From IMG/VR virus record IMGVR_UViG_2548876944_000018: 12,453 bases of DNA. One strand, 5' to 3'. The notes beneath the pieces are model-generated. The model saw only the letters and a program-made list of their open reading frames with translations, had not been told where the DNA came from and searched no databases. The position numbers were made by a program, and so were the translations under genes. This DNA comes from a virus. Its lineage: Duplodnaviria; Heunggongvirae; Uroviricota; Caudoviricetes. Below are positions 1,750 through 12,453 of the stretch, piece by piece. The first letter of the stretch is position 1. The number at the start of each line of letters is the position of its first letter.

Positions 1750-2520
1750 ATGCAAAAATTCCATTACGTTTATCACACCACTATTAAATCTAATCGCTCT
1801 GGTAAAATCTATCATTACGTCGGAAAAAGAACAACCACAAATCTAGACGATGGATATGTGGGATCGGGTAAAGTTATTAAAATGATGAAGCGTAAAAATA
1901 AAGAATCAGAAACCCCGATATATGAATTTGAAGTTGTTCGTTCAAAATTGTTTGATACTGCCGAGGAAGCGTTTGAATGTGAAATCCTGTTAGTGGAGGC
2001 AGCACGCGAAAAATGGGGGCGTGGTGTATGTCTTAATATAGCTCCTGGTGGTGTCGGTGGTTTTGATGGTGGTGAAAATCATCCTTTTTACGGAAGAAAA
2101 CATACACCGGAATCTAGAGCTAAAATGTCGGCATCTCGAATGGGTGAAAAGAACCATCGCTATGGTAAACCTAGTGCAATGAGAGGCAAAAAAGTAACAA
2201 ACCCAGAAATATTAGCTAAATTATCGGCTGCTACTCGTGGAGAGAATAACCCCCGTTATGGTAAACCTGTATCAGAAGAAACACGCGAAAAGATTAGAAA
2301 AGCACATCTAGGGCGCAAGCGACCAGAAAGCTCTACCAAGAAATATACACATTCTATACGTATTGCTAAAGGTCAAGGCTGTTGGCAGCATTACGATGAA
2401 ATCCGGCGCGTGTGGATTGAAAACGGTAAACCCGGCGCGGTTAAATTGAGTCAAATCATGGTTAGCTTAGGCCATCCAAAATACAACCTTCGTAGAATGT
2501 ACGAAGACTTCAAGAAATAA
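1750..2520 (+). CDS. GIY-YIG family homing endonuclease with three NUMOD3 repeats (Seg / I-TevI-like), 256 aa
   Basis: N-terminal HYVY...YHYVGKRT (GIY-YIG-like module), FECEIL (compare FECSIL in I-TevI as recalled) and LNIAPGG (conserved Asn region). Three NUMOD3-type repeats follow: NHPFYGRKHTPESRAKMS, NHRYGKPSAMRGKK and NNPRYGKPVSEETREKIRKAH, then a basic C-terminal tail. The gene is visibly more AT-rich than the flanking tail genes. Confidence 0.85.
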   Translation: MQKFHYVYHTTIKSNRSGKIYHYVGKRTTTNLDDGYVGSGKVIKMMKRKNKESETPIYEFEVVRSKLFDTAEEAFECEILLVEAAREKWGRGVCLNIAPGGVGGFDGGENHPFYGRKHTPESRAKMSASRMGEKNHRYGKPSAMRGKKVTNPEILAKLSAATRGENNPRYGKPVSEETREKIRKAHLGRKRPESSTKKYTHSIRIAKGQGCWQHYDEIRRVWIENGKPGAVKLSQIMVSLGHPKYNLRRMYEDFKK

Positions 2521-2986: not shown

Positions 2987-5900
2987 TGGGATTTGAAATA
3001 TTAGTAGGCGCGGTTATTGCTGGTGCGTCTGCTGGGATGGCTGCTGCTGCAACATTTTCTGTTATGACCGCAGTCGCTATCGGTATGGCTGCTGGTGCAA
3101 TGACCTTGATCGCTTCCACTGTAGGCGCACCAAAAACACCGAAAGTACAAAGCTCAGATAATGCGGTGACACTAGGAACATCAAACGATCCGAAAGCGGT
3201 GATACCAGTCGTTTTCGGTACTACCCGCACTGGCACAAACTGTGTTTACAAAGCAGTTTCTAAGCAAGAAAACAATAAGCTAGTGCAAATCTTCTCTGTA
3301 GCCGAGGGTGAAATCGACCATTACAAAGCACTCTTTATTGATAATAAAAACGTTCTCATTAGCCAGAATATGACAATTCGTGATGGCATTCTCGATAAAG
3401 GAAACATTAAAGACGAATACCGCAAAGTGTTAGAAGTCGAGTTTCGCACTGGTAAAAATCCTAACACTGCATTGGATCTGGCTAAACATCATTTGGGCGC
3501 AGATTGGGATGATCGGTATCAGGGTAACGGCATTGCGACCATGTGTATTGTGTTACGTCGTGACGATAAATCTTTGGCTGCTGGTGTTGATATCCTTCAA
3601 CCAAATAGCCAAGTGGCAGTCGATGTTATGGGCTTAAAAATCCGTAACCTCGAAACCAATGCTATTGAGGCAAGCACTAACGGCGTGGACCAGATTTTCC
3701 ATTATCTGACAAATACAAAGTATGGTCTTAGTGTACCGATTGAAAATATTAACGTTGATTCATTCCTGAAAGTGCGTAAACAAGTACGCCAGATGGACCT
3801 ACATTCCAACGGTGCATGTGATCCGAACGCCAGCTTTAAAGAGAACTTGACCAGTCTTATGCAGACTTTCGGCGGGGTAATGTTCGAATCCTTCGGAAGA
3901 ATTACCCTGAAACTGGATGCTCCTGATATTGTTAAGCATACCTTCAATGAAGACAATATCATGATGGGTAAGGTATCACTGAAAACAGGTGGCACTAACG
4001 GTTATTTCAATACCATTAACGCGATGTATCAAGAACCATCAATCGACTATTCAGAGCAAATGCTACGTTATCCGGCTGATGCTGAAAACGATGCTACTAT
4101 TCGTCAAGATGGTCGAATTATCGCTAAAGATATTGAATATCGTTTTGTTAAGTCTAAAGCCCAGATTGATAAACTAGCGAGTGTAGAACGAAATAAATCT
4201 CGTATCACTCAGGTTATCAGCTTTATGACTACTGACGCATTCACTGCCGAAGTGTGGGATGTTATTAGCGTTACCTATGATGAATTGAAACTGAATAATT
4301 CACTTTGGCGCATTACTGCAATTGATCGTTCTATTGATTCTGGTATTGCTGGGATGATGACTATCACCGCTACAGAATATAATTCTCAGGTTTATACTGA
4401 CCTGAACTATGCGGCGACTCCAGACAATAGACCTACTGGTTTACCGGATTCAATGACAGTACAGAAGCCTACTAATTTCAGAATTAAGGCAACTGGTGAG
4501 ACAATCCACGGTAAAAACGTAACTTTGACATGGGATGCACCGGAAGATTTCAACCGTTATGGTTTCCAGATTGATTATCGTGTGAGTGGATCACCTAACT
4601 GGATTAAGCTGGGACAGACTTCACAGCAAATTTTCAATATCAATGCACTGGCAAAAGATCGCTCCTACGATTACCGCGTTTGTGCTTTCGGTATTATTGC
4701 TCGTTCCGAATGGGTGGAACTGGTTAACCAGAATCCTACTGTTACCTATGAATTGCCTACGCCAGTGATCCGCATCAAAAATCAGGGTAGTTCACCTGGT
4801 ACTTTCGAAGGCAATGATCTGATTATCGAATGGGAAAATCAGCAACAATTAGATGTGATGATCAACGGTGAAGCTAACAAGTTTAGTGACCTGTTTGAAG
4901 CATACATTATCAAGGTAACTAACAAGGCTGGTAAGTCTATTCAGTACCGTACCCGCGATCCTGAATCATGGACTTATACGCTTGATATGAACCAGTTTAA
5001 CGGCCTTTCGCGTCAATTGACGGTAGAAGTATCCGTTAAGGGCTATAACAACTCAGAGAGCGCCCCAGCGCGTTTAGTGGCTATCAACCCACAACATAAG
5101 CCGATGAAAGGTTTTAGTGCGCGTGGTGGCTTTAATACTGCGTTTGTTAGCTGGGCGGATGACGTAGAACATGACTATGCAGGGTCAATCATTCAGTATG
5201 CAACCGATAACACTTTCTCCGATGCAAGGGCAGTGACTACCAATAGCGTTAGTCATACTTCCTTTGATTTGGCTGACGGTGATTATTATATCCGTGGTGC
5301 TCACTATGATATTTTCGGTATGGATGATGCTGTTTGGTCCGAACCGTATTTCATGCAAATGAAATCTACCATTAGCTGGGACGATCAGGACAAAGAAGCA
5401 CTGGAAGACCTGATCGGTTTACAAGATCGATTAGATGAAACTATCGCGGATGCTATTAAGCAAGCTGGCGCTAATGCCGATGCTAAAATTGATGCAATGC
5501 ATAAACAGATTACTACCGAGACAGGGCAGACGGTCCAAGCCTCAGCCGATACTCTCAAGAGTCTGATTGCTACCAGTGAGCAAGCCAGCGCAACTAAGAT
5601 TGATCAGGTTAAAGCTGAACTGAAAGGCGATATCACCAAAGAAGTTAGCGCATCCGCTACTACCCTGAAACAAGCAATTGCTACCAGTGAGGCAGCAAGC
5701 GCAAGTAAGATTGATCAAGTTCGGGTAGAAATGGATGGCAAGATTGCTGGTGTGAATCAGGAAGCAGATGTAAAAATCGATGCTTTGAAGGGAACCATTA
5801 ACAGCAAATATAATCTGGCAGTTAATGCAGATGGTCGCGTGGCTGGTATTCATATGAGCGCAACCAATGATCCGGCAGAACCGACAAGAATCATCTTTAC

Positions 5901-6732
5901 GGCTGATAAAATCGCGGTAGCTCCACAAGACGGATCCGAAGTTTGTCCGTTTGGCATCGAAGATAACAAAGTTTATCTTGATAATGCGATGATTCGTAAT
6001 GCTGCAATTGGCACAGCCCAGATTAGTGATGCGGCTATTACCACGGCTAAGATCGGCACAGCCCAGATTAACGGCGCTCACATCCAACACGCACAGATCG
6101 GAACGGGTCATATCATTGATGGCTCTATCGATAATGCTAAAATTGGTAACTATATCCAGTCTTATAACTGGAATGGTAACGATGGATGGTATATCGGCAA
6201 AGATGGCACTTGTCATTTTAGACACGCTAATATTCGTGGTCATTTGGTGGCTGATTCCGGCGAAATGAACAACGTAACGATTAATTCAAGTTGCCGCATT
6301 TTGGGTATGCTTGATGCTAATCAGGTGCGTGGTGACTTCGTGAAAGTGGTTGGTAGGAGTTTCCCACATCGTCAACCAAACTGGCCTGATGGTGCAATCA
6401 CTGTAAGGGTCGAAGATGATCATCCATTCGATCGCCAAATAGTGATTCCAGCGATTCATCATAACGGGTCTGTTCGTCGTGGCGAAAGTAGCGATCATTG
6501 GGATACTTGCCGACTAATCGTTAAGAAAAATGGTGGTGTTCTATATGATCGCACTGCAACTTCTGGCTGTATGTACAGTGGAGTTATTGACATGCCAGCC
6601 GGACACGGGGCAGTAACAATGACTTTTGAAGTTTACTGTAAGGGCGTTAACAACTATAACCCAAGTGCATATATCAGCGATCTAACGGTAATGGTAACTA
6701 AGAAAGCCGCTACTGGTATTTCTGTTTCTTAA
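2986..6732 (+). CDS. J: Host specificity protein J-like central tail fiber / tail tip protein, 1248 aa
   Basis: A 3.7-kb ORF at the end of the tail operon with a GGGGG Shine-Dalgarno. The middle contains fibronectin-III-like segments (for example NVTLTWDAPEDF...YDYRVCAFG). The C-terminal ~130 aa contain DDHPFDRQIV, VIDMPAG and MVTKKAATGISVS, which closely match the lambda gpJ C-terminal receptor-binding region as I recall it (DDHPFDRQIV, IVDMPAG, MVIKKQALGISVV). Confidence 0.9.
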   Translation: MGFEILVGAVIAGASAGMAAAATFSVMTAVAIGMAAGAMTLIASTVGAPKTPKVQSSDNAVTLGTSNDPKAVIPVVFGTTRTGTNCVYKAVSKQENNKLVQIFSVAEGEIDHYKALFIDNKNVLISQNMTIRDGILDKGNIKDEYRKVLEVEFRTGKNPNTALDLAKHHLGADWDDRYQGNGIATMCIVLRRDDKSLAAGVDILQPNSQVAVDVMGLKIRNLETNAIEASTNGVDQIFHYLTNTKYGLSVPIENINVDSFLKVRKQVRQMDLHSNGACDPNASFKENLTSLMQTFGGVMFESFGRITLKLDAPDIVKHTFNEDNIMMGKVSLKTGGTNGYFNTINAMYQEPSIDYSEQMLRYPADAENDATIRQDGRIIAKDIEYRFVKSKAQIDKLASVERNKSRITQVISFMTTDAFTAEVWDVISVTYDELKLNNSLWRITAIDRSIDSGIAGMMTITATEYNSQVYTDLNYAATPDNRPTGLPDSMTVQKPTNFRIKATGETIHGKNVTLTWDAPEDFNRYGFQIDYRVSGSPNWIKLGQTSQQIFNINALAKDRSYDYRVCAFGIIARSEWVELVNQNPTVTYELPTPVIRIKNQGSSPGTFEGNDLIIEWENQQQLDVMINGEANKFSDLFEAYIIKVTNKAGKSIQYRTRDPESWTYTLDMNQFNGLSRQLTVEVSVKGYNNSESAPARLVAINPQHKPMKGFSARGGFNTAFVSWADDVEHDYAGSIIQYATDNTFSDARAVTTNSVSHTSFDLADGDYYIRGAHYDIFGMDDAVWSEPYFMQMKSTISWDDQDKEALEDLIGLQDRLDETIADAIKQAGANADAKIDAMHKQITTETGQTVQASADTLKSLIATSEQASATKIDQVKAELKGDITKEVSASATTLKQAIATSEAASASKIDQVRVEMDGKIAGVNQEADVKIDALKGTINSKYNLAVNADGRVAGIHMSATNDPAEPTRIIFTADKIAVAPQDGSEVCPFGIEDNKVYLDNAMIRNAAIGTAQISDAAITTAKIGTAQINGAHIQHAQIGTGHIIDGSIDNAKIGNYIQSYNWNGNDGWYIGKDGTCHFRHANIRGHLVADSGEMNNVTINSSCRILGMLDANQVRGDFVKVVGRSFPHRQPNWPDGAITVRVEDDHPFDRQIVIPAIHHNGSVRRGESSDHWDTCRLIVKKNGGVLYDRTATSGCMYSGVIDMPAGHGAVTMTFEVYCKGVNNYNPSAYISDLTVMVTKKAATGISVS
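5539..5760 (+). repeat. Imperfect tandem duplication of about 111 bp (37 codons) inside the J-like gene
   Basis: ATTGCTACCAGTGAG occurs at 5566-5580 and 5677-5691, and AAGATTGATCA(G/A)GTT at 5596-5610 and 5707-5721, both with a 111-nt offset. The peptide units are ASADTLKSLIATSEQASATKIDQVKAELKGDITKE and VSASATTLKQAIATSEAASASKIDQVRVEMDGKIAG. Confidence 0.75.
6001..6150 (+). repeat. Ten consecutive pentapeptide repeats (A-x-I-x-x) inside the J-like gene
   Basis: Translation reads AAIGT AQISD AAITT AKIGT AQING AHIQH AQIGT GHIID GSIDN AKIGN, with Ile at a strict 5-residue period. GGCACAGCCCAGATTA is repeated at 6010-6025 and 6055-6070. Confidence 0.7.
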
Positions 6733-8385: not shown

Positions 8386-8739
8386 ATGTTAAGCAAACAT
8401 TTTTCTCGCAAGGAATTTAAATGTAAATGCGGAAAATGTGATTATGATACAATCGACGCTGAATTACTGGTAATTCTTGAGGATGTACGAGAGCACTTCG
8501 GGAAGCCAGTAATTATTAACAGTGGGAACCGTTGTCCGACTCATAATAAGAATGTTGGCGGCGCAACCAATAGCTATCATGTTCGAGGCCGTGCGGCTGA
8601 CATTGTTATCAAGGGTGTCTCACCTGATATTGTTCATGCTTATCTTGATGGGAAATATCCTACTCAATACGGCTTAGGAAAATATAAAACATTTACGCAT
8701 ATCGATTCCAGATCAAAAAAATCACGGTGGAATGGATAA
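8386..8739 (+). CDS. Peptidase M15 family (DD-/LD-peptidase fold) cell-wall hydrolase, probable endolysin, 117 aa
   Basis: AGGGGG Shine-Dalgarno. FSRKEF...INSGNRCPTHNKNVGGATNSYHVRGRAADI matches the conserved SG(Y/N)R...HN...GG...S.H..G.A.D core of small phage M15-type peptidases. A CKCGKC cysteine cluster lies near the N-terminus. Confidence 0.8.
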   Translation: MLSKHFSRKEFKCKCGKCDYDTIDAELLVILEDVREHFGKPVIINSGNRCPTHNKNVGGATNSYHVRGRAADIVIKGVSPDIVHAYLDGKYPTQYGLGKYKTFTHIDSRSKKSRWNG

Positions 8740-8929
8740 AACAAAAGCGCCTCTGGTGGGCGCTTTTTTGTTAGAATATGCTGGCGACGTTAGCTATATT
8801 TCTGACCATTTTTTCATTATAGACAAATATACCGCAGACGATAAAGTCGTTTTTGACGAAGTAGATCCGTCTCTGGTTGAAGTAATGAAAGAACCGGAAG
8901 ACCTAGAGCTTGATTTAAGCCAATTATAG
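8732..8929 (+). CDS. Doubtful small acidic ORF, 65 aa
   Basis: The ATG overlaps the last 8 nt of the M15 gene and the frame reads straight through the terminator hairpin. No properly spaced Shine-Dalgarno is present (GGTGGA ends 1 nt before the ATG). The C-terminus is strongly acidic (EVMKEPEDLELDLSQL). Confidence 0.2.
   Translation: MDKTKAPLVGAFLLEYAGDVSYISDHFFIIDKYTADDKVVFDEVDPSLVEVMKEPEDLELDLSQL
8743..8770 (+). terminator. Rho-independent terminator at the end of the plus-strand block
   Basis: Perfect 9-bp stem AAAAGCGCC (8743-8751) / GGCGCTTTT (8759-8767) with a 7-nt loop, followed by a T6 run. The upstream A tract makes it potentially bidirectional. Confidence 0.8.
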
Positions 8930-8953
8930 ACTCTCTAACGCAATTAAATTAAA

Positions 8954-8975
8954 AAGGGGTACGGATGTACCCCTT
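8954..8975 (-). terminator. Stem-loop terminating the minus-strand block (perfect 9-bp palindrome)
   Basis: AAGGGGTAC (8954-8962), loop GGAT, GTACCCCTT (8967-8975). On the minus strand it is followed by TTTTTAATTTAATT. It lies 37 bp downstream of the last minus-strand gene. Confidence 0.6.
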
Positions 8976-9011
8976 AAAGCGTTTGGTTCGTTATACGGCG
9001 ATTTAGGCCGC

Positions 9012-9269
9012 CTATGATTTATTTTCTTGTTCTATGAAAATCTTTCTCACCTCATCAGAATAAATGTCTAGTGATTCCTCATAACATTTTCTGTATTCAT
9101 CGTAATTACTGGTGGTCTTTTGACATAGCAATTTCAATGTCTTATGTGCTCCATCAATGAAAGCATCTTTTCTATAGGTTAGCGGTCTACGCATTTCTTG
9201 GTCTACGGTTGCCAATGCCAAGCAAGAATTCATAGATAAAATCAAACCTAAAATCTTAATCATCTTCAT
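9012..9269 (-). CDS. Small secreted protein with a signal peptide, about 85 aa
   Basis: The track start at 9284 is TTG. The first ATG (9269) gives MKMIKILGLILSMNSCLALA followed by TVDQ, a typical signal peptide with an A-x-A site. The mature part has two Cys residues. The ATG lies 4 nt after the recombinase stop. The region is AT-rich. Confidence 0.6.
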   Translation of the reverse strand: MKMIKILGLILSMNSCLALATVDQEMRRPLTYRKDAFIDGAHKTLKLLCQKTTSNYDEYRKCYEESLDIYSDEVRKIFIEQENKS

Positions 9270-9273
9270 TAGC

Positions 9274-10953
9274 TTAAATTCCAAATTCTTGTAATGGACC
9301 TGGTATTTCTTCTTCTGGTTTCCAGTTCTTATCTGTCAGCATGTCTAAACATGGATGCAGAACAAGCCCGTTACTCTCCAGAATCTGCCTATCATTGATA
9401 GTCTTCAAATCAACGAAGATCCGGCCTTTCCTCGGTCCTCTTGAATTTTCTATTACAACTCTCTGGGTCTTGCCATCGATGTATTCCAGTACAAACAAGT
9501 TTTTGTACTTGTCAATCCTGCTACACCCGATCCGTTTTAGAGCTTGCTTAATCTTAAACCGGACCTTAATGCGATCCTCGTTGTAAACATCTTCTAAATC
9601 AAATTCTGCGAGCTTCTCCCAGCCTTGAGAGTCAACAGAATACATTTCCTCTTCTGCCATCTTAAGTTGATTGTAGAGTGTTTCACGCTCGCTATTGAGG
9701 GTAGTAATCTGATCGGCTAGCTCCTTCGTTGCTCCTGTCATAGCAGAAAGGGTAATCAGGTTATCAATCTTGCGTGATATTTCATCAATCTGTACTTTCA
9801 AAGCCGGAACCGGATTAGCCTTATCTTCAGCAATCCAGATTTTATCAGCCAGCAATTGCAATACAGCTTTCTCTAATTGGTCGCCGCGAAAACTCCAGTT
9901 TGTATGCACACATTCAATACGACTAGAGCGCATTGCATCGCATGAATAACGATATTGGTTAGGCCGTCTGTTTGTTCCTTTCACCTTAACCATAGCGGAA
10001 CCGCAATGTTCACATTTCAATAGACCAACACCACTAAGCAAGGGAATAGGTTTAGCTTCTTCTTTGTCTCCAAAGTTACATGCTCTAACACCAATGCTTT
10101 TCTTAAGGTGATAAAACTCAGCGTCATCTAGCACACGAGGATAATAATCCTTTAACTCATACTTAACGCCATCTACAGAGATTTCCTTGATACCAATCAA
10201 AGCGCGGGTATGGAACAACCTTTCAATCATTGCCCGTGACCAGTTTGAATGCCTCTTGTGACTTGCGGCTGGTGGTGGTGTGTATGTCGCGTTAAGGTGA
10301 TCCAGTATCTCGGCGGTTGACCGTCCATTCCTGCGTAATTCCACAACTTCCTGAACAATAGGGAAGAAGACCGGATGAGGAAGCACATAACCAGATGTGG
10401 TATCAGTCCACCACATATTCTTTCCAATTTCCTCGATTGCAACAGCCGGATTTTGTGGATTTTCTTGATGAGCTTTAATCTTAATCAGTGCGCTTGAGTT
10501 AGTACGATTGCGCTTAGTCTGGCTTTCCTCATTACCACGGATGAATAAAAGGATGGAGAACATCAGGTCCATCGGGTTAGCGGTAACAGTATCAAGCGAG
10601 TAGATCTTGTTATCCATGCCAGTAACAATGGTTATCCCCCTACGGATGATTGAAAGGAATAACTCCTGCGCACTGACAATATCGGCACGGGATAAACGGT
10701 CCAAGTTTTCGATGAATAGCCAGCTACCAACAGGAACGGATCTACCTATTGCATCAAGGAAACGAGATAGCGCCCCTGTTTTGGAGTTAGCACCCTTAAA
10801 CGCAGATACACCCAGATCCTGATAATCATTTACCAGTTCAAGGTCATACTTTACCGCAATCTCTCTAGCCATCCTGATTTGTCGTTCATAACTCGAACCA
10901 TCATTCTGACGCATAGACGAGAAGCGAATATACGAATACAGTTTAGTTTTCAT
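9274..10953 (-). CDS. Large serine recombinase (serine integrase family), about 559 aa
   Basis: N-terminal resolvase-type catalytic motif YSYIRFSSMRQ...SYERQ with the nucleophile Ser near residue 10. A Cys-rich zinc-ribbon segment (CEHCGSAM...YRYSCDAMRSSRIECVH) and a coiled-coil region (ALKVQIDEISRKIDNLITL...) follow. The track start is TTG at 10968; the ATG at 10953 is preferred. Confidence 0.9.
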   Translation of the reverse strand: MKTKLYSYIRFSSMRQNDGSSYERQIRMAREIAVKYDLELVNDYQDLGVSAFKGANSKTGALSRFLDAIGRSVPVGSWLFIENLDRLSRADIVSAQELFLSIIRRGITIVTGMDNKIYSLDTVTANPMDLMFSILLFIRGNEESQTKRNRTNSSALIKIKAHQENPQNPAVAIEEIGKNMWWTDTTSGYVLPHPVFFPIVQEVVELRRNGRSTAEILDHLNATYTPPPAASHKRHSNWSRAMIERLFHTRALIGIKEISVDGVKYELKDYYPRVLDDAEFYHLKKSIGVRACNFGDKEEAKPIPLLSGVGLLKCEHCGSAMVKVKGTNRRPNQYRYSCDAMRSSRIECVHTNWSFRGDQLEKAVLQLLADKIWIAEDKANPVPALKVQIDEISRKIDNLITLSAMTGATKELADQITTLNSERETLYNQLKMAEEEMYSVDSQGWEKLAEFDLEDVYNEDRIKVRFKIKQALKRIGCSRIDKYKNLFVLEYIDGKTQRVVIENSRGPRKGRIFVDLKTINDRQILESNGLVLHPCLDMLTDKNWKPEEEIPGPLQEFGI

Positions 10954-10960
10954 ACCATTT

Positions 10961-11002
10961 CCAAACAAAAACGCCCCTACCGCGTATTATAACGATAGGG
11001 GC
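10961..11002 (-). terminator. Rho-independent terminator immediately upstream of the recombinase gene, with TATAAT in its loop
   Basis: On the minus strand: GCCCCTA(T)CG, loop TTATAATACG, CG(G)TAGGGGC, then GTTTTTGTTTGG. The T tract ends about 8 nt before the recombinase ATG. Confidence 0.6.
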
Positions 11003-11016
11003 TAGGTGATTAAAGA

Positions 11017-11436
11017 TTAAAGAATTTCACGGCAGCTAATCAGGGAATAAGACGTATCACCTTTTTTAACATCAAATATAGGCGCGCCATCTACAGAATG
11101 CAGATATTTGATGTAGGATTTACCATCTTCGGAACCATAATATTCTTCTTTCTCGTTCTTATCTCCTTTCAGTTTTGGGCTTTTGATTGTTTTATCAAAT
11201 ACCGGATCGTTGAAAGCAAATTGACTATTATCATCATTCACTCGAACCTTTACACCGATAAAACCACGGTATTTGCCAGACGGCGCATGATAATAACGGT
11301 CGCCATCACTCAGGTAGCGTGTATCATCTCCTTTATATTCGAAGTAGGAATTGCACACATAATAGGTATAGGTATTAGCATTCGCAGCACCAACCAAACC
11401 CAGAGCAAGAACAACACCAGCGATAATCTTTTTCAT
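11017..11436 (-). CDS. Secreted (periplasmic) Tyr-rich protein with a signal peptide, 139 aa
   Basis: Strong Shine-Dalgarno (AAGAGGAAA) upstream. The N-terminus MKKIIAGVVLALGLVGAANA followed by NTY is a canonical Sec signal peptide. The mature protein has one Cys near each end. No homolog was recognised. Confidence 0.7.
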   Translation of the reverse strand: MKKIIAGVVLALGLVGAANANTYTYYVCNSYFEYKGDDTRYLSDGDRYYHAPSGKYRGFIGVKVRVNDDNSQFAFNDPVFDKTIKSPKLKGDKNEKEEYYGSEDGKSYIKYLHSVDGAPIFDVKKGDTSYSLISCREIL

Positions 11437-11481
11437 AGTAGAATTTCCTCTTGTTGTTTGAATTACGATATATTTATATCA

Positions 11482-11604
11482 TTAAAAGTTAATGCTAATA
11501 ATCAGACCAAACACAACCGCACCAATCAAATCAATCCAGTTAATACACAGCGAATATTCTTTCTTGAATGTCTTAGATGAAATGCCATCATGAAATTGTT
11601 TCAT
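11482..11604 (-). CDS. Micro-ORF, 40-aa peptide with a C-terminal transmembrane segment (not in the ORF track)
   Basis: My own translation gives MKQFHDGISSKTFKKEYSLCINWIDLIGAVVFGLIISINF. GGGGTGAG lies 5 nt upstream of the ATG, which begins 3 nt after the stop of the preceding micro-ORF. Confidence 0.4.
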   Translation of the reverse strand: MKQFHDGISSKTFKKEYSLCINWIDLIGAVVFGLIISINF

Positions 11605-11607
11605 TGC

Positions 11608-11688
11608 TCACCCCATACTAACGACAATATAAGAAAGACTAATCATGGTTGTGAGACTACCTCCCACGAATGAGATAAAAGCTAACAT
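11608..11688 (-). CDS. Micro-ORF, 26-aa hydrophobic peptide (not in the ORF track)
   Basis: My own translation gives MLAFISFVGGSLTTMISLSYIVVSMG. GGAGA lies about 8 nt upstream. It sits directly after the repeated intergenic stem-loop and directly before the 40-aa ORF. Confidence 0.3.
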   Translation of the reverse strand: MLAFISFVGGSLTTMISLSYIVVSMG

Positions 11689-11704
11689 GTTTGATTCTCC
11701 ATTT

Positions 11705-11740
11705 AAAAAGCGGTGGGAATTACACCCACCAAATTAGAAA
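11705..11740 (-). repeat. Intergenic stem-loop element, copy 1 (terminator-like on the minus strand)
   Basis: Plus-strand CGGTGGG-AATTACA-CCCACC-AAATTAGA. On the minus strand this reads TCTAATTTGGTGGG...CCCACCG followed by CTTTTTAAA. It lies directly after the stop of gene 11745-12131. Confidence 0.55.
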
Positions 11741-11744
11741 TTAA

Positions 11745-12131
11745 TTAAGCGCGAACGATGGTCAGAGTATCCAGCAAACCTTTTTCGTATAATTCGAAAC
11801 ACGTTTTATATTGCTCAATCTTCCAACCGTAGCGGGTGATCTTATTCAGTAGAATAATCACGGTATTCTCATCTAGGTATTGTCCTTGCTTACCAATTAC
11901 ATATGACTCGCGGGATAGTCTCAGCTTACGGAAACCTTTAACACCTAATTCCTTAGCCACCGCTTTAACCTCGTTAATCTCACCTTCTGCGGCTACATAT
12001 TCAGCGTCGATAATCTCAGTTGATGATCTCAGTGCTACCAGAACTAAGGCCATTGCTTCTTCTTCGGTACGAGCAACACCAGCTTTCTCGAAAGTCATCT
12101 CACCAAATTTACGAGTCATAATATTGAACAT
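11745..12131 (-). CDS. Hypothetical protein, 128 aa
   Basis: Clean ORF on the minus strand between the two copies of the stem-loop element. Only a weak Shine-Dalgarno (GGAA) precedes the ATG at 12131. No motif was recognised. Confidence 0.65.
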   Translation of the reverse strand: MFNIMTRKFGEMTFEKAGVARTEEEAMALVLVALRSSTEIIDAEYVAAEGEINEVKAVAKELGVKGFRKLRLSRESYVIGKQGQYLDENTVIILLNKITRYGWKIEQYKTCFELYEKGLLDTLTIVRA

Positions 12132-12150
12132 TGTCGTATTCCGTTTAAAT

Positions 12151-12180
12151 CGGCGGGAATAGTACCCGCCAAATTAGACA
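12151..12180 (-). repeat. Intergenic stem-loop element, copy 2
   Basis: Plus-strand CGGCGGG-AATAGTA-CCCGCC-AAATTAGA. It has the same 6-bp stem and 7-nt loop geometry and the same AAATTAGA flank as copy 1, with a compensatory T:A to C:G change in the stem. It lies directly after the stop of gene 12181-12453. Confidence 0.55.
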
Positions 12181-12453
12181 TTACTTCTTGCTGATAAACT
12201 CTTTAGCGATAAAGTTGATTACTTCTTTCAGCTTCTTGTCTGTATCGATGCACGCTGGTAATTCTTCTTTAATATCCTGCGGCAGATACACATTGCCTTT
12301 AAAGTGGAGGAAACCATCATTACCAATCATGTAGGAGAACATCCATTCACAATCGTTATCCGCTTCCCAGAACGCCACGGTCTCATCCCCAATCAAGGTA
12401 ATGTCCATGTTGCGACGCGCTGCGTAGTTGATGATTGCTTTACCGATGTTCAT
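12181..12453 (-). CDS. Hypothetical protein, 5' end at the window edge (possibly partial)
   Basis: The frame is open to the last base of the window. An ATG sits exactly at 12451-12453, but the true start may lie beyond the window. No motif was recognised. Confidence 0.55.
   Translation of the reverse strand: MNIGKAIINYAARRNMDITLIGDETVAFWEADNDCEWMFSYMIGNDGFLHFKGNVYLPQDIKEELPACIDTDKKLKEVINFIAKEFISKK

Follow-up and report, generated by a model that had tools for sequence, protein, structure and literature searches.

Introduction

A large share of phage-resistance and host-fitness traits comes from accessory genes located next to the integrase of prophages. Those whose products act in the periplasm are few and poorly understood, the main examples being Sim of phage P1 and Spackle of phage T4. 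Sim is a prophage-encoded protein of ~25 kDa, processed by signal peptidase, which blocks a step after adsorption. Spackle (gp61.3) has a Sec signal peptide followed by an all-helical mature part of 75 amino acids (aa) with one disulfide, and blocks the tail lysozyme from the periplasm (PMC7677548). Superinfecting phages are also excluded by small envelope proteins of phage origin such as Cor (phi80, T1 and N15) and Llp (T5), which are lipoproteins whose lipobox Cys is residue +1. Lambdoid phages carry morons (lambda bor and lom, HK97), i.e. extra genes with a promoter and a terminator of their own, found beside core modules, variable among relatives and often targeted to the envelope. Here we compare with these systems two small genes, orf139 and orf85, that flank the large serine recombinase gene in a stretch of 12,453 nucleotides (nt) of the IMG/VR record IMGVR_UViG_2548876944_000018 (hereafter the window), which is the right-hand end of an E. 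coli prophage whose tail is siphovirus-like.

A first-pass annotation of the window had described the two products as Sec-exported proteins with a Cys pair, encoded beside an integration module and suited to lysogenic conversion or superinfection exclusion, for example by receptor masking. Our analysis leads us to view both as Sec-exported periplasmic proteins with one disulfide each, carried as accessory cargo by an E. coli prophage that integrates in hicB, and perhaps acting through protective binding in the periplasm; on balance, and with some reserve, we think this reading likely. The two are new, uncharacterised families of a known kind, prophage morons encoding envelope proteins.

Results

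Export signals of orf139 and orf85

The export signals called in the first-pass annotation were borne out by a rule-based scan for Sec/signal peptidase I signal peptides, applied to the 41 ATG-initiated open reading frames (ORFs) of at least 40 aa in the six frames of the window. The rules asked for a positive n-region, an uncharged run of 12 residues or more that includes a hydrophobic core, and a cleavage site with a small residue at -1, a small or aliphatic one at -3 and a hydrophilic mature part behind it. Exactly two ORFs were picked, orf139 (139 aa) and orf85 (85 aa), both on the minus strand; the chance rate, estimated from 200 shuffles, was 0.6% per ORF, or 0.175 per window. Each begins with a 20-residue signal peptide made of a positive n-region, an uncharged hydrophobic core and an AxA motif, with predicted cleavage after A20 and a hydrophilic mature part beyond. 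The N-terminus of orf139 is MKK / IIAGVVLALGLVG / AANA / N (start MKKIIAGVVLALGLVGAANA, then NTYTYYVC), and that of orf85 is MKMIK / ILGLILSMNSC / LALA / T (start MKMIKILGLILSMNSCLALA, then TVDQ), the last slash marking the cleavage site.

The mature parts hold two Cys each, as had been noticed: Cys28 and Cys135 in orf139, Cys49 and Cys62 in orf85. In addition, orf85 has Cys16 within its signal peptide; orf139 has no Cys within or beside its own. Judging from these features, both genes very probably encode exported periplasmic proteins. No lipobox ([LVI][ASTVI][GAS]C with the Cys at +1) was found in either of them, the context of Cys16 in orf85 being SMNSC, with N at -2, followed by the hydrophobic LALA and the AxA site. 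Receptor masking, the function put forward as an example in the first-pass annotation, matches lipoproteins of the Cor and Llp type, and is contradicted by this absence of a lipobox, for which reason we reject it. As for the AT-richness claimed for both genes, it holds for orf85, whose G+C content of 33.3% is the lowest of the 17 genes tabulated, and less clearly for orf139, which at 38.8% is no lower than the lysis genes (39%); the corresponding values are 41.7% for the window, 43.5% for the tail J gene and 36.8% for the gene at 2552-2986.

The orf139 cassette and its exchange slot

Homology to the window is interrupted, in about half of 58 related E. coli prophages, between 11002 and 11378/11375. 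The first breakpoint is the top of the stem of the terminator that follows orf139 (Table 1), and the second is the cleavage-site codon of its signal peptide (type-B and type-C loci). Between these points the alternative cassettes code for mature domains that are unrelated and follow the same signal peptide, MKKIIAG(V/I)VLALGLVGAANA, and promoter, 5' untranslated region (UTR), signal peptide and terminator are all retained where the orf139 mature domain is swapped. One alternative is an 81-aa protein (EQYVQGDS…), another a 75-aa protein (KPIGNEAA…, type C), both with two Cys. Some loci have, alongside the 81-aa type, an additional gene for a 113-aa, N-anchored coiled-coil protein, inserted by reuse of the same 5' module. 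The orf139 type itself is present in ~25 of the 58 E. coli relatives and replaced in the others. Searches of Pfam, PHROGs, NCBIfam and PADLOC with the alternative cassettes gave no match beyond a weak hit of the 113-aa protein to an Rz-like spanin PHROG (E 9e-5). On these comparisons the position of orf139 is an exchange slot, in which two-Cys mature domains are swapped between kept flanks. Cassette type was compared with the C-terminus of the tail-tip protein J in four loci, too sparse a sample for interpretation. In a further locus (L009), a homing-endonuclease-like gene stands in place of the secreted cassette.

The stretch between the upstream 40-aa ORF and the orf139 start (ATG at 11436) reads TTTTAATGATATAAATATATCGTAATTCAAACAACAAGAGGA. 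It plausibly contains, from its sequence, an extended -10 promoter (TG-n-TATAAA) followed by a strong Shine-Dalgarno (SD) sequence, AGAGGA. This 5' region is nearly unchanged in two Salmonella loci (L018 and L019) whose proteins are only 44-61% identical.

Two tiny overlapping ORFs precede the cassette. The 26-aa one (MLAFISFVGGSLTTMISLSYIVVSMG) is hydrophobic throughout and the 40-aa one (MKQFHDGISSKTFKK…) is hydrophobic towards its C-terminus. Both show protein-level conservation in the Salmonella relatives (L018 ~5757-5960, L019 5572-5956), and in L019 an extra gene separates them. Possibly they are small membrane peptides made together with the secreted cassette, as part of the same unit. 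On the other side of orf139, a perfect TATAAT occurs in the loop of the terminator hairpin, ~30 nt upstream of the recombinase start, and this element may be an overlapping terminator and integrase promoter.

Table 1. Features of the window and of related loci (window positions unless a locus is given).
Feature	Position	Strand	Remarks
orf139, 139-aa precursor, signal peptide residues 1-20, mature part ~119 aa	11017-11436	-	ORF
5' control region of orf139: TG 11481-11480, TATAAA 11478-11473, SD 11451-11446	11446-11481	-	read from sequence
Signal-peptide coding module, MKKIIAGVVLALGLVGAANA	11377-11436	-	common to otherwise unrelated cassettes of related prophages
Exchangeable segment: mature-domain coding sequence, stop codon and few bases	11003-11376	-	BLAST breakpoints 11002, 11378
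Terminator hairpin 3' of orf139, 11 bp stem and T-run	10973-11002	-	terminator scan; kept in E. coli and Salmonella loci
Terminator-like hairpin upstream of the orf139 unit, after the preceding gene	11711-11731		terminator scan
Two tiny overlapping ORFs upstream of orf139, 26 aa and 40 aa	11608-11688 (26 aa), 11482-11604 (40 aa)	-	
orf85, 85-aa precursor, signal peptide residues 1-20, mature part 65 aa	9012-9269	-	ORF
Segment of ~262 bp bearing orf85	~9015-9276	-	absent from most relatives
Terminator hairpin where the late-gene and integrase units converge	8954-8975	-	ends the recombinase-orf85 transcript
Large serine recombinase, 559 aa from ATG	9274-10953	-	Resolvase, Recombinase and Zn-ribbon domains (Pfam)
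M15 peptidase, lysis region	8386-8739		
J-like tail-tip protein, 1248 aa	2986-6732		among tail genes
NUMOD3 homing-endonuclease gene	1750-2520	+	interrupts the tail gene block of the window
Homing-endonuclease-like genes in relatives	L003 3072-3653, L004 1829-3004, L009 461-1507		

Family and predicted fold of orf139

A word-indexed search of 5.8 billion proteins gave eight clusters of orf139 homologues, with 41-99% identity, and all those with a source name come from E. coli or Salmonella. A full profile search with HMMER, over 1.84 billion representatives, added just two further full-length relatives. One outlier match, P0015, a Bacteroidetes SprB-like repeat protein (E 5e-5), was set aside as an uninformative beta-repeat similarity. 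Among eight aligned homologues the signal peptide, Cys28, Cys135 and a DKxIxSPKLK motif are invariant, and the ratio of nonsynonymous to synonymous substitution rates relative to relatives is 0.08-0.34; by these sequence criteria orf139 is certainly a real gene under purifying selection. A 160-aa ORF runs antisense to it (11098-11580, plus strand) and is considered spurious, because selection and annotation follow the minus-strand frame.

The first-pass annotation had allowed that the genes might prove absent from all relatives. For orf139 this is not the case, its homologues being syntenic from E. coli to Salmonella, where, in prophages located at ycdX, they are again found immediately upstream of the serine recombinase. 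Between two such Salmonella loci the recombinases are 95% identical and the orf139 homologues 44% identical; this pattern indicates that orf139 evolves by allele replacement.

An AlphaFold2 model of orf139, built from the eight-sequence alignment, reached a mean predicted local distance difference test (pLDDT) score of 85, above 90 in most of the mature part, and a predicted template modelling score of 0.76. It has twelve beta-strands forming a small closed beta-barrel. The antiparallel register of strands 23-35 and 128-137, whose extents are compatible, would place Cys28 opposite Cys135. Mature orf139 is predicted from this model to be a small soluble beta-barrel, with a Cys28-Cys135 disulfide stapling the first strand to the last. 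Searching for similar folds returned generic small barrels and weak matches to uncharacterised phage (lipo)proteins; those named beside the model were the NHBA C-domain, TbpB handle domains and YceI-like proteins. It is barely credible that this barrel belongs to a small outer-membrane protein of the Lom/Ail/OmpX kind: the mature part is only ~119 aa long, highly charged and predicted to be held by a disulfide, the C-termini (…CREIL, …CSKIQ, …CTKQ, …CN) have no terminal aromatic beta-signal, and no outer-membrane protein family of Pfam was matched.

Another explanation is that orf139 and orf85 are lysogenic-conversion or host-fitness factors acting against the animal host or the environment, e.g. 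lysozyme inhibitors like PliC/MliC or barrels binding small ligands. MliC/PliC (PF09864) was tried as a candidate family for orf139 and rejected. There was no Pfam match at E ≤0.1, and hhalign of the family against E. coli MliC gave 1% probability, with the signal peptide alone aligned. The motifs SxSGAxY and YxxxTKG are not conserved in the orf139 family; E. coli MliC carries SASGARY and FWSKGD, and the look-alikes in orf139, PSGKY and KKGD, are not family-conserved. Structural neighbours of MliC/PliC type are outscored by functionally unrelated barrels. Since, moreover, conflicts between phages, or between toxins and immunity, are the more typical setting for rapid replacement of cassettes, we regard a host-fitness role as unlikely.

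Neither orf139 nor orf85 had a significant sequence match in the PDB, or a tblastn match among 50,697 phage genomes. A PADLOC hit of orf139 to PDC-M63A (E 0.005) was rejected, as it was obtained with just 2 of the 8 family members, the window protein and its 99%-identical twin, and is not family-wide.

The best alignment of the PDB search with the orf139 family profile was a local one (E 0.3), between residues 58-85 (window 11182-11265) and residues 62-88 of E. coli ExbD, which correspond to the beta1-beta2 hairpin of its periplasmic domain. By hand count 12 of 27 residues are identical, and the segment spans six residues invariant in the orf139 family (V66, D69, N70, F73, P78 and D81); the overall folds of the two proteins differ. 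The known interface of ExbD with the TonB D-box consists of residues 130-134 (PMC10907165). As this lies outside 62-88, mimicry of ExbD by the orf139 hairpin, and with it interference with the Ton system, is only a remote prospect, and the similarity is probably due to chance.

The orf85 insertion

Of 56 related E. coli prophages, 18 have the segment bearing orf85, as a clean indel: in relatives without it, the recombinase stop adjoins sequence homologous to 8931-9014. The orf85 ATG lies 5 nt past the recombinase stop, and an alternative TTG at 9284 would give a product of 90 aa; the gene is possibly translationally coupled to the recombinase. In the 5.8 billion proteins searched, orf85 forms a single 90%-identity cluster. 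The ORF is intact in the 8 loci read (8/8), their sole indel being an in-frame insertion of 3 nt.

The AlphaFold2 model of orf85 has a pLDDT of 64 overall and of 70-85 in helices 30-52 and 56-84. The predicted fold of mature orf85 is a helical hairpin, its turn flanked by Cys49 and Cys62. A fold search with the model gave 14,171 helical matches and was uninformative. Compared singly by BLASTP with the 75-aa (type-C) cassette protein of strain STEC1575, mature orf85 gave an E value of 4e-5, and the Smith-Waterman score of the pair was reached by 0 of 5000 shuffles (p<2e-4). At the sequence level, orf85 thus appears significantly, if distantly, related to a cassette protein of the orf139 slot. 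Its intact ORF, the signal-peptide-like N-terminus, the predicted hairpin with Cys near the turn and the type-C similarity make orf85 probably real; as a gene it is less certain than orf139. A relationship with Spackle was looked for and rejected: phmmer of the mature part against all PDB chains, at E ≤10, gave no Spackle chain, and there was no PHROG match.

The two genes behave as accessory, moron-like cargo beside the integration module, being present or absent, or swapped, among close relatives. They are att-proximal, dispensable and often replaced, and both are retained in a prophage remnant of ~5.5 kb found between two hicB halves in E. coli EC7072022BGR (L022 6653-12595). This remnant keeps an LprI-family 'lysozyme inhibitor' gene, a 184-aa gene, orf85, the recombinase, orf139 and two small genes, and reveals the gene content of the far prophage end. 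Other envelope-directed small genes occur in the att-proximal region of relatives: this LprI-family gene, at the other prophage end, and a lipoprotein gene in L019.

A further explanation is that orf139 and orf85 serve the cycle of the phage itself, as periplasmic lysis factors (anti-endolysin, spanin accessory) or as modulators of DNA injection, with orf85 perhaps tied to integrase expression. The lysis cassette, with its M15 peptidase, adjoins; the 113-aa coiled-coil protein with the Rz-like spanin hit occupies the same slot in relatives; and orf85, co-transcribed with the recombinase, accompanies it even in the deleted remnant. We nevertheless consider such a role very unlikely, because both genes are dispensable in many otherwise similar prophages and their transcription is opposite to that of the late genes, and because the known directionality factors of serine integrases are cytoplasmic, which is incompatible with a cleaved signal peptide.

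Prophage setting

The recombinase flanked by orf139 and orf85 matches the integrase family PHROG 95 (E 3e-58) and, on this evidence, is the prophage integrase. The last 3.75 kb of the window (8700-12453) recur, at 99.9% identity, in the chromosomes of several complete E. coli genomes. In one of them, strain 14EC017, the prophage ends ~40 bp past the window end, abutting a truncated hicB, so that the two genes and the recombinase stand at the att-proximal end of a prophage in hicB. A related integration module was found in 60 of 5,426 complete E. coli genomes, inserted in hicB in some and in ycdX in others. No close cultured phage was found among the 50,697 phage genomes, and the recombinase is only ~30% identical to that of any cultured phage. 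Literature searches on this prophage family (ycdX or hicB, serine recombinase) returned nothing relevant.

Several side observations concern the integration module and its surroundings. Serine recombinases 92-93% identical occur in prophages inserted in two different genes, hicB and ycdX, and the host-side junctions are alike, ATATT-TGGCAAACCTAAACAGGAG vs ATATT-AGGGAATCCCAAATATGAA (window end 12453 and beyond; L001 23740-23850, L005 7643-7753, L022 6900-7230). This pair of prophages could serve as a natural system for studying the target specificity of serine integrases. The otherwise near-identical prophage of 14EC017 (L001) has IS421 and IS1A insertions (5075-6187 and 13889-14586); this copy is probably defective, since IS1A splits the J-like tail-tip gene. 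Homing-endonuclease-like genes (NUMOD3/GIY-YIG, or T5orf172-like of 332-348 aa) are found at varying sites in the prophage family (Table 1). Finally, a 65-aa ORF (8732-8929, plus strand) resembles a deletion fusion: it opens with the start of a 123-148-aa gene of relatives and closes (…DLELDLSQL) with the end of one of 332 aa. The window variant lacks here ~1.2 kb, including a probable homing-endonuclease-like gene, and orf85-bearing variants have the same arrangement in the six full-length loci read.

Discussion

The scenario that we infer, from export and disulfides to the activity of the orf139 promoter, expression in the lysogen and any target, is the following. Both precursors would be exported by Sec, cut by signal peptidase I after residue 20, and oxidized to one disulfide in the periplasm. 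They would be accessory cargo of the integration module and not core phage functions. orf139 would form a stand-alone, moron-like unit comprising the candidate extended -10 promoter, the SD, the gene and the terminator; having a candidate promoter and a terminator of its own, it could be expressed in the lysogen without the late operon. orf85 would be an insertion of 262 bp read through from the integrase gene, and its product a disulfide-linked helical hairpin. In the orf139 slot, unrelated two-Cys domains would be swapped, with the promoter, 5' UTR and signal peptide kept before them and the terminator kept behind.

The reading with most support makes orf139 and orf85 envelope factors beneficial to the lysogen. 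Rapid replacement of domains behind a fixed export signal is expected of a conflict interface, and periplasmic superinfection exclusion or immunity is therefore favoured; superinfection exclusion by these proteins is plausible. Going further, we advance, tentatively and with doubt, that their most likely job is to bind protectively, in the periplasm, an incoming agent, e.g. the wall-degrading or DNA-delivery apparatus of a superinfecting phage. The exclusion proposed would be of the T4 Spackle or P1 Sim kind, and not lipoprotein receptor masking.

Several observations weigh against our preferred reading of protective periplasmic cargo. Scans of both proteins against Pfam, PHROGs, NCBIfam and PADLOC gave no credible match, including none to an exclusion or defence family. 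The orf139 promoter was read by eye, and we only infer its activity, since a scan for consensus -35/-10 elements called no promoter at 11481-11473. The SD of orf85 is weak, the gene lacks a promoter of its own and has a terminator in common with the integrase transcript (8954-8975), and it appears therefore to be expressed with the integrase; this co-expression fits poorly with a function lasting throughout lysogeny, and such a layout is not the usual one of lysogenic-conversion genes. In six relatives examined, orf85 has no RefSeq annotation (from the PGAP pipeline), and its polymorphism (synonymous at 3 sites, nonsynonymous at 4) is no proof of coding.

Taken with the weak SD and the single 90% cluster, these last two points would suit the explanation that only orf139 is real, orf85 being a chance ORF in a 262-bp AT-rich insertion that is not expressed as protein. 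This is in our view quite unlikely: a signal-peptide-like N-terminus arises by chance at the low rate given above, the ORF is intact in all loci read with its lone indel in frame, it resembles an annotated secreted cassette protein to an extent that no shuffle reached, its Cys lie near the hairpin turn, and other pipelines do annotate it.

The launch pad (promoter, 5' UTR and signal peptide) and the terminator might together be a dedicated slot for shuffling unrelated periplasmic effector domains, with a second slot after the integrase; we find this idea rather unlikely. Were it true, an arms race would be fought with periplasmic superinfection-exclusion or immunity factors from at least four new families of disulfide-bonded mini-proteins: a PliC-like mini-barrel, an anchored coiled coil and two helical kinds (the one modelled, orf85, being a hairpin). 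Hundreds of assemblies, from E. coli, Shigella and Salmonella, encode the proteins described here, which are labelled 'hypothetical' in every source. The clean boundaries of the cassettes make them a compact, testable set, with one signal peptide and several mature domains, which could be used to discover new mechanisms of periplasmic exclusion or immunity; without a phenotype, they would be ordinary morons of unknown function.

Comparison with known systems

Lambdoid morons share with the two genes their place beside a core module and their variability among relatives, with orf85 in 18 of 56 and the orf139 type in ~25 of 58 prophages, and orf139 has, as they do, a terminator of its own (10973-11002); its promoter is a candidate one. 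The present locus differs in that a fixed module of promoter and signal peptide is reused for unrelated mature domains, and in that orf85 is devoid of transcription signals of its own, its terminator being the one it has in common with the integrase. Cor and Llp are likewise small phage-encoded envelope proteins, but they are lipoproteins, a type which neither orf139 (…GAANA / N) nor orf85 (…SMNSC, then LALA / T) fits. P1 Sim is much larger than either protein.

With T4 Spackle, orf85 and the 81-aa and 75-aa cassettes share the same architecture, being phage-encoded and small, with a signal peptide and a Cys pair. They differ in several respects: orf85 is predicted to be a two-helix hairpin and not a bundle, no sequence similarity was detected, and Spackle is an early gene of a lytic phage whereas the genes described here are prophage cargo, with no known counterpart of its target, the gp5 lysozyme. 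Compared with the MliC/PliC/PhiA/ACP muramidase inhibitors, orf139 has more strands, 12 predicted against 8, and no profile or motif match. We nonetheless see in T4 Spackle the closest working analogue, and structurally in the PliC/MliC/PhiA barrels, a likeness that would be one of resemblance and not of membership.

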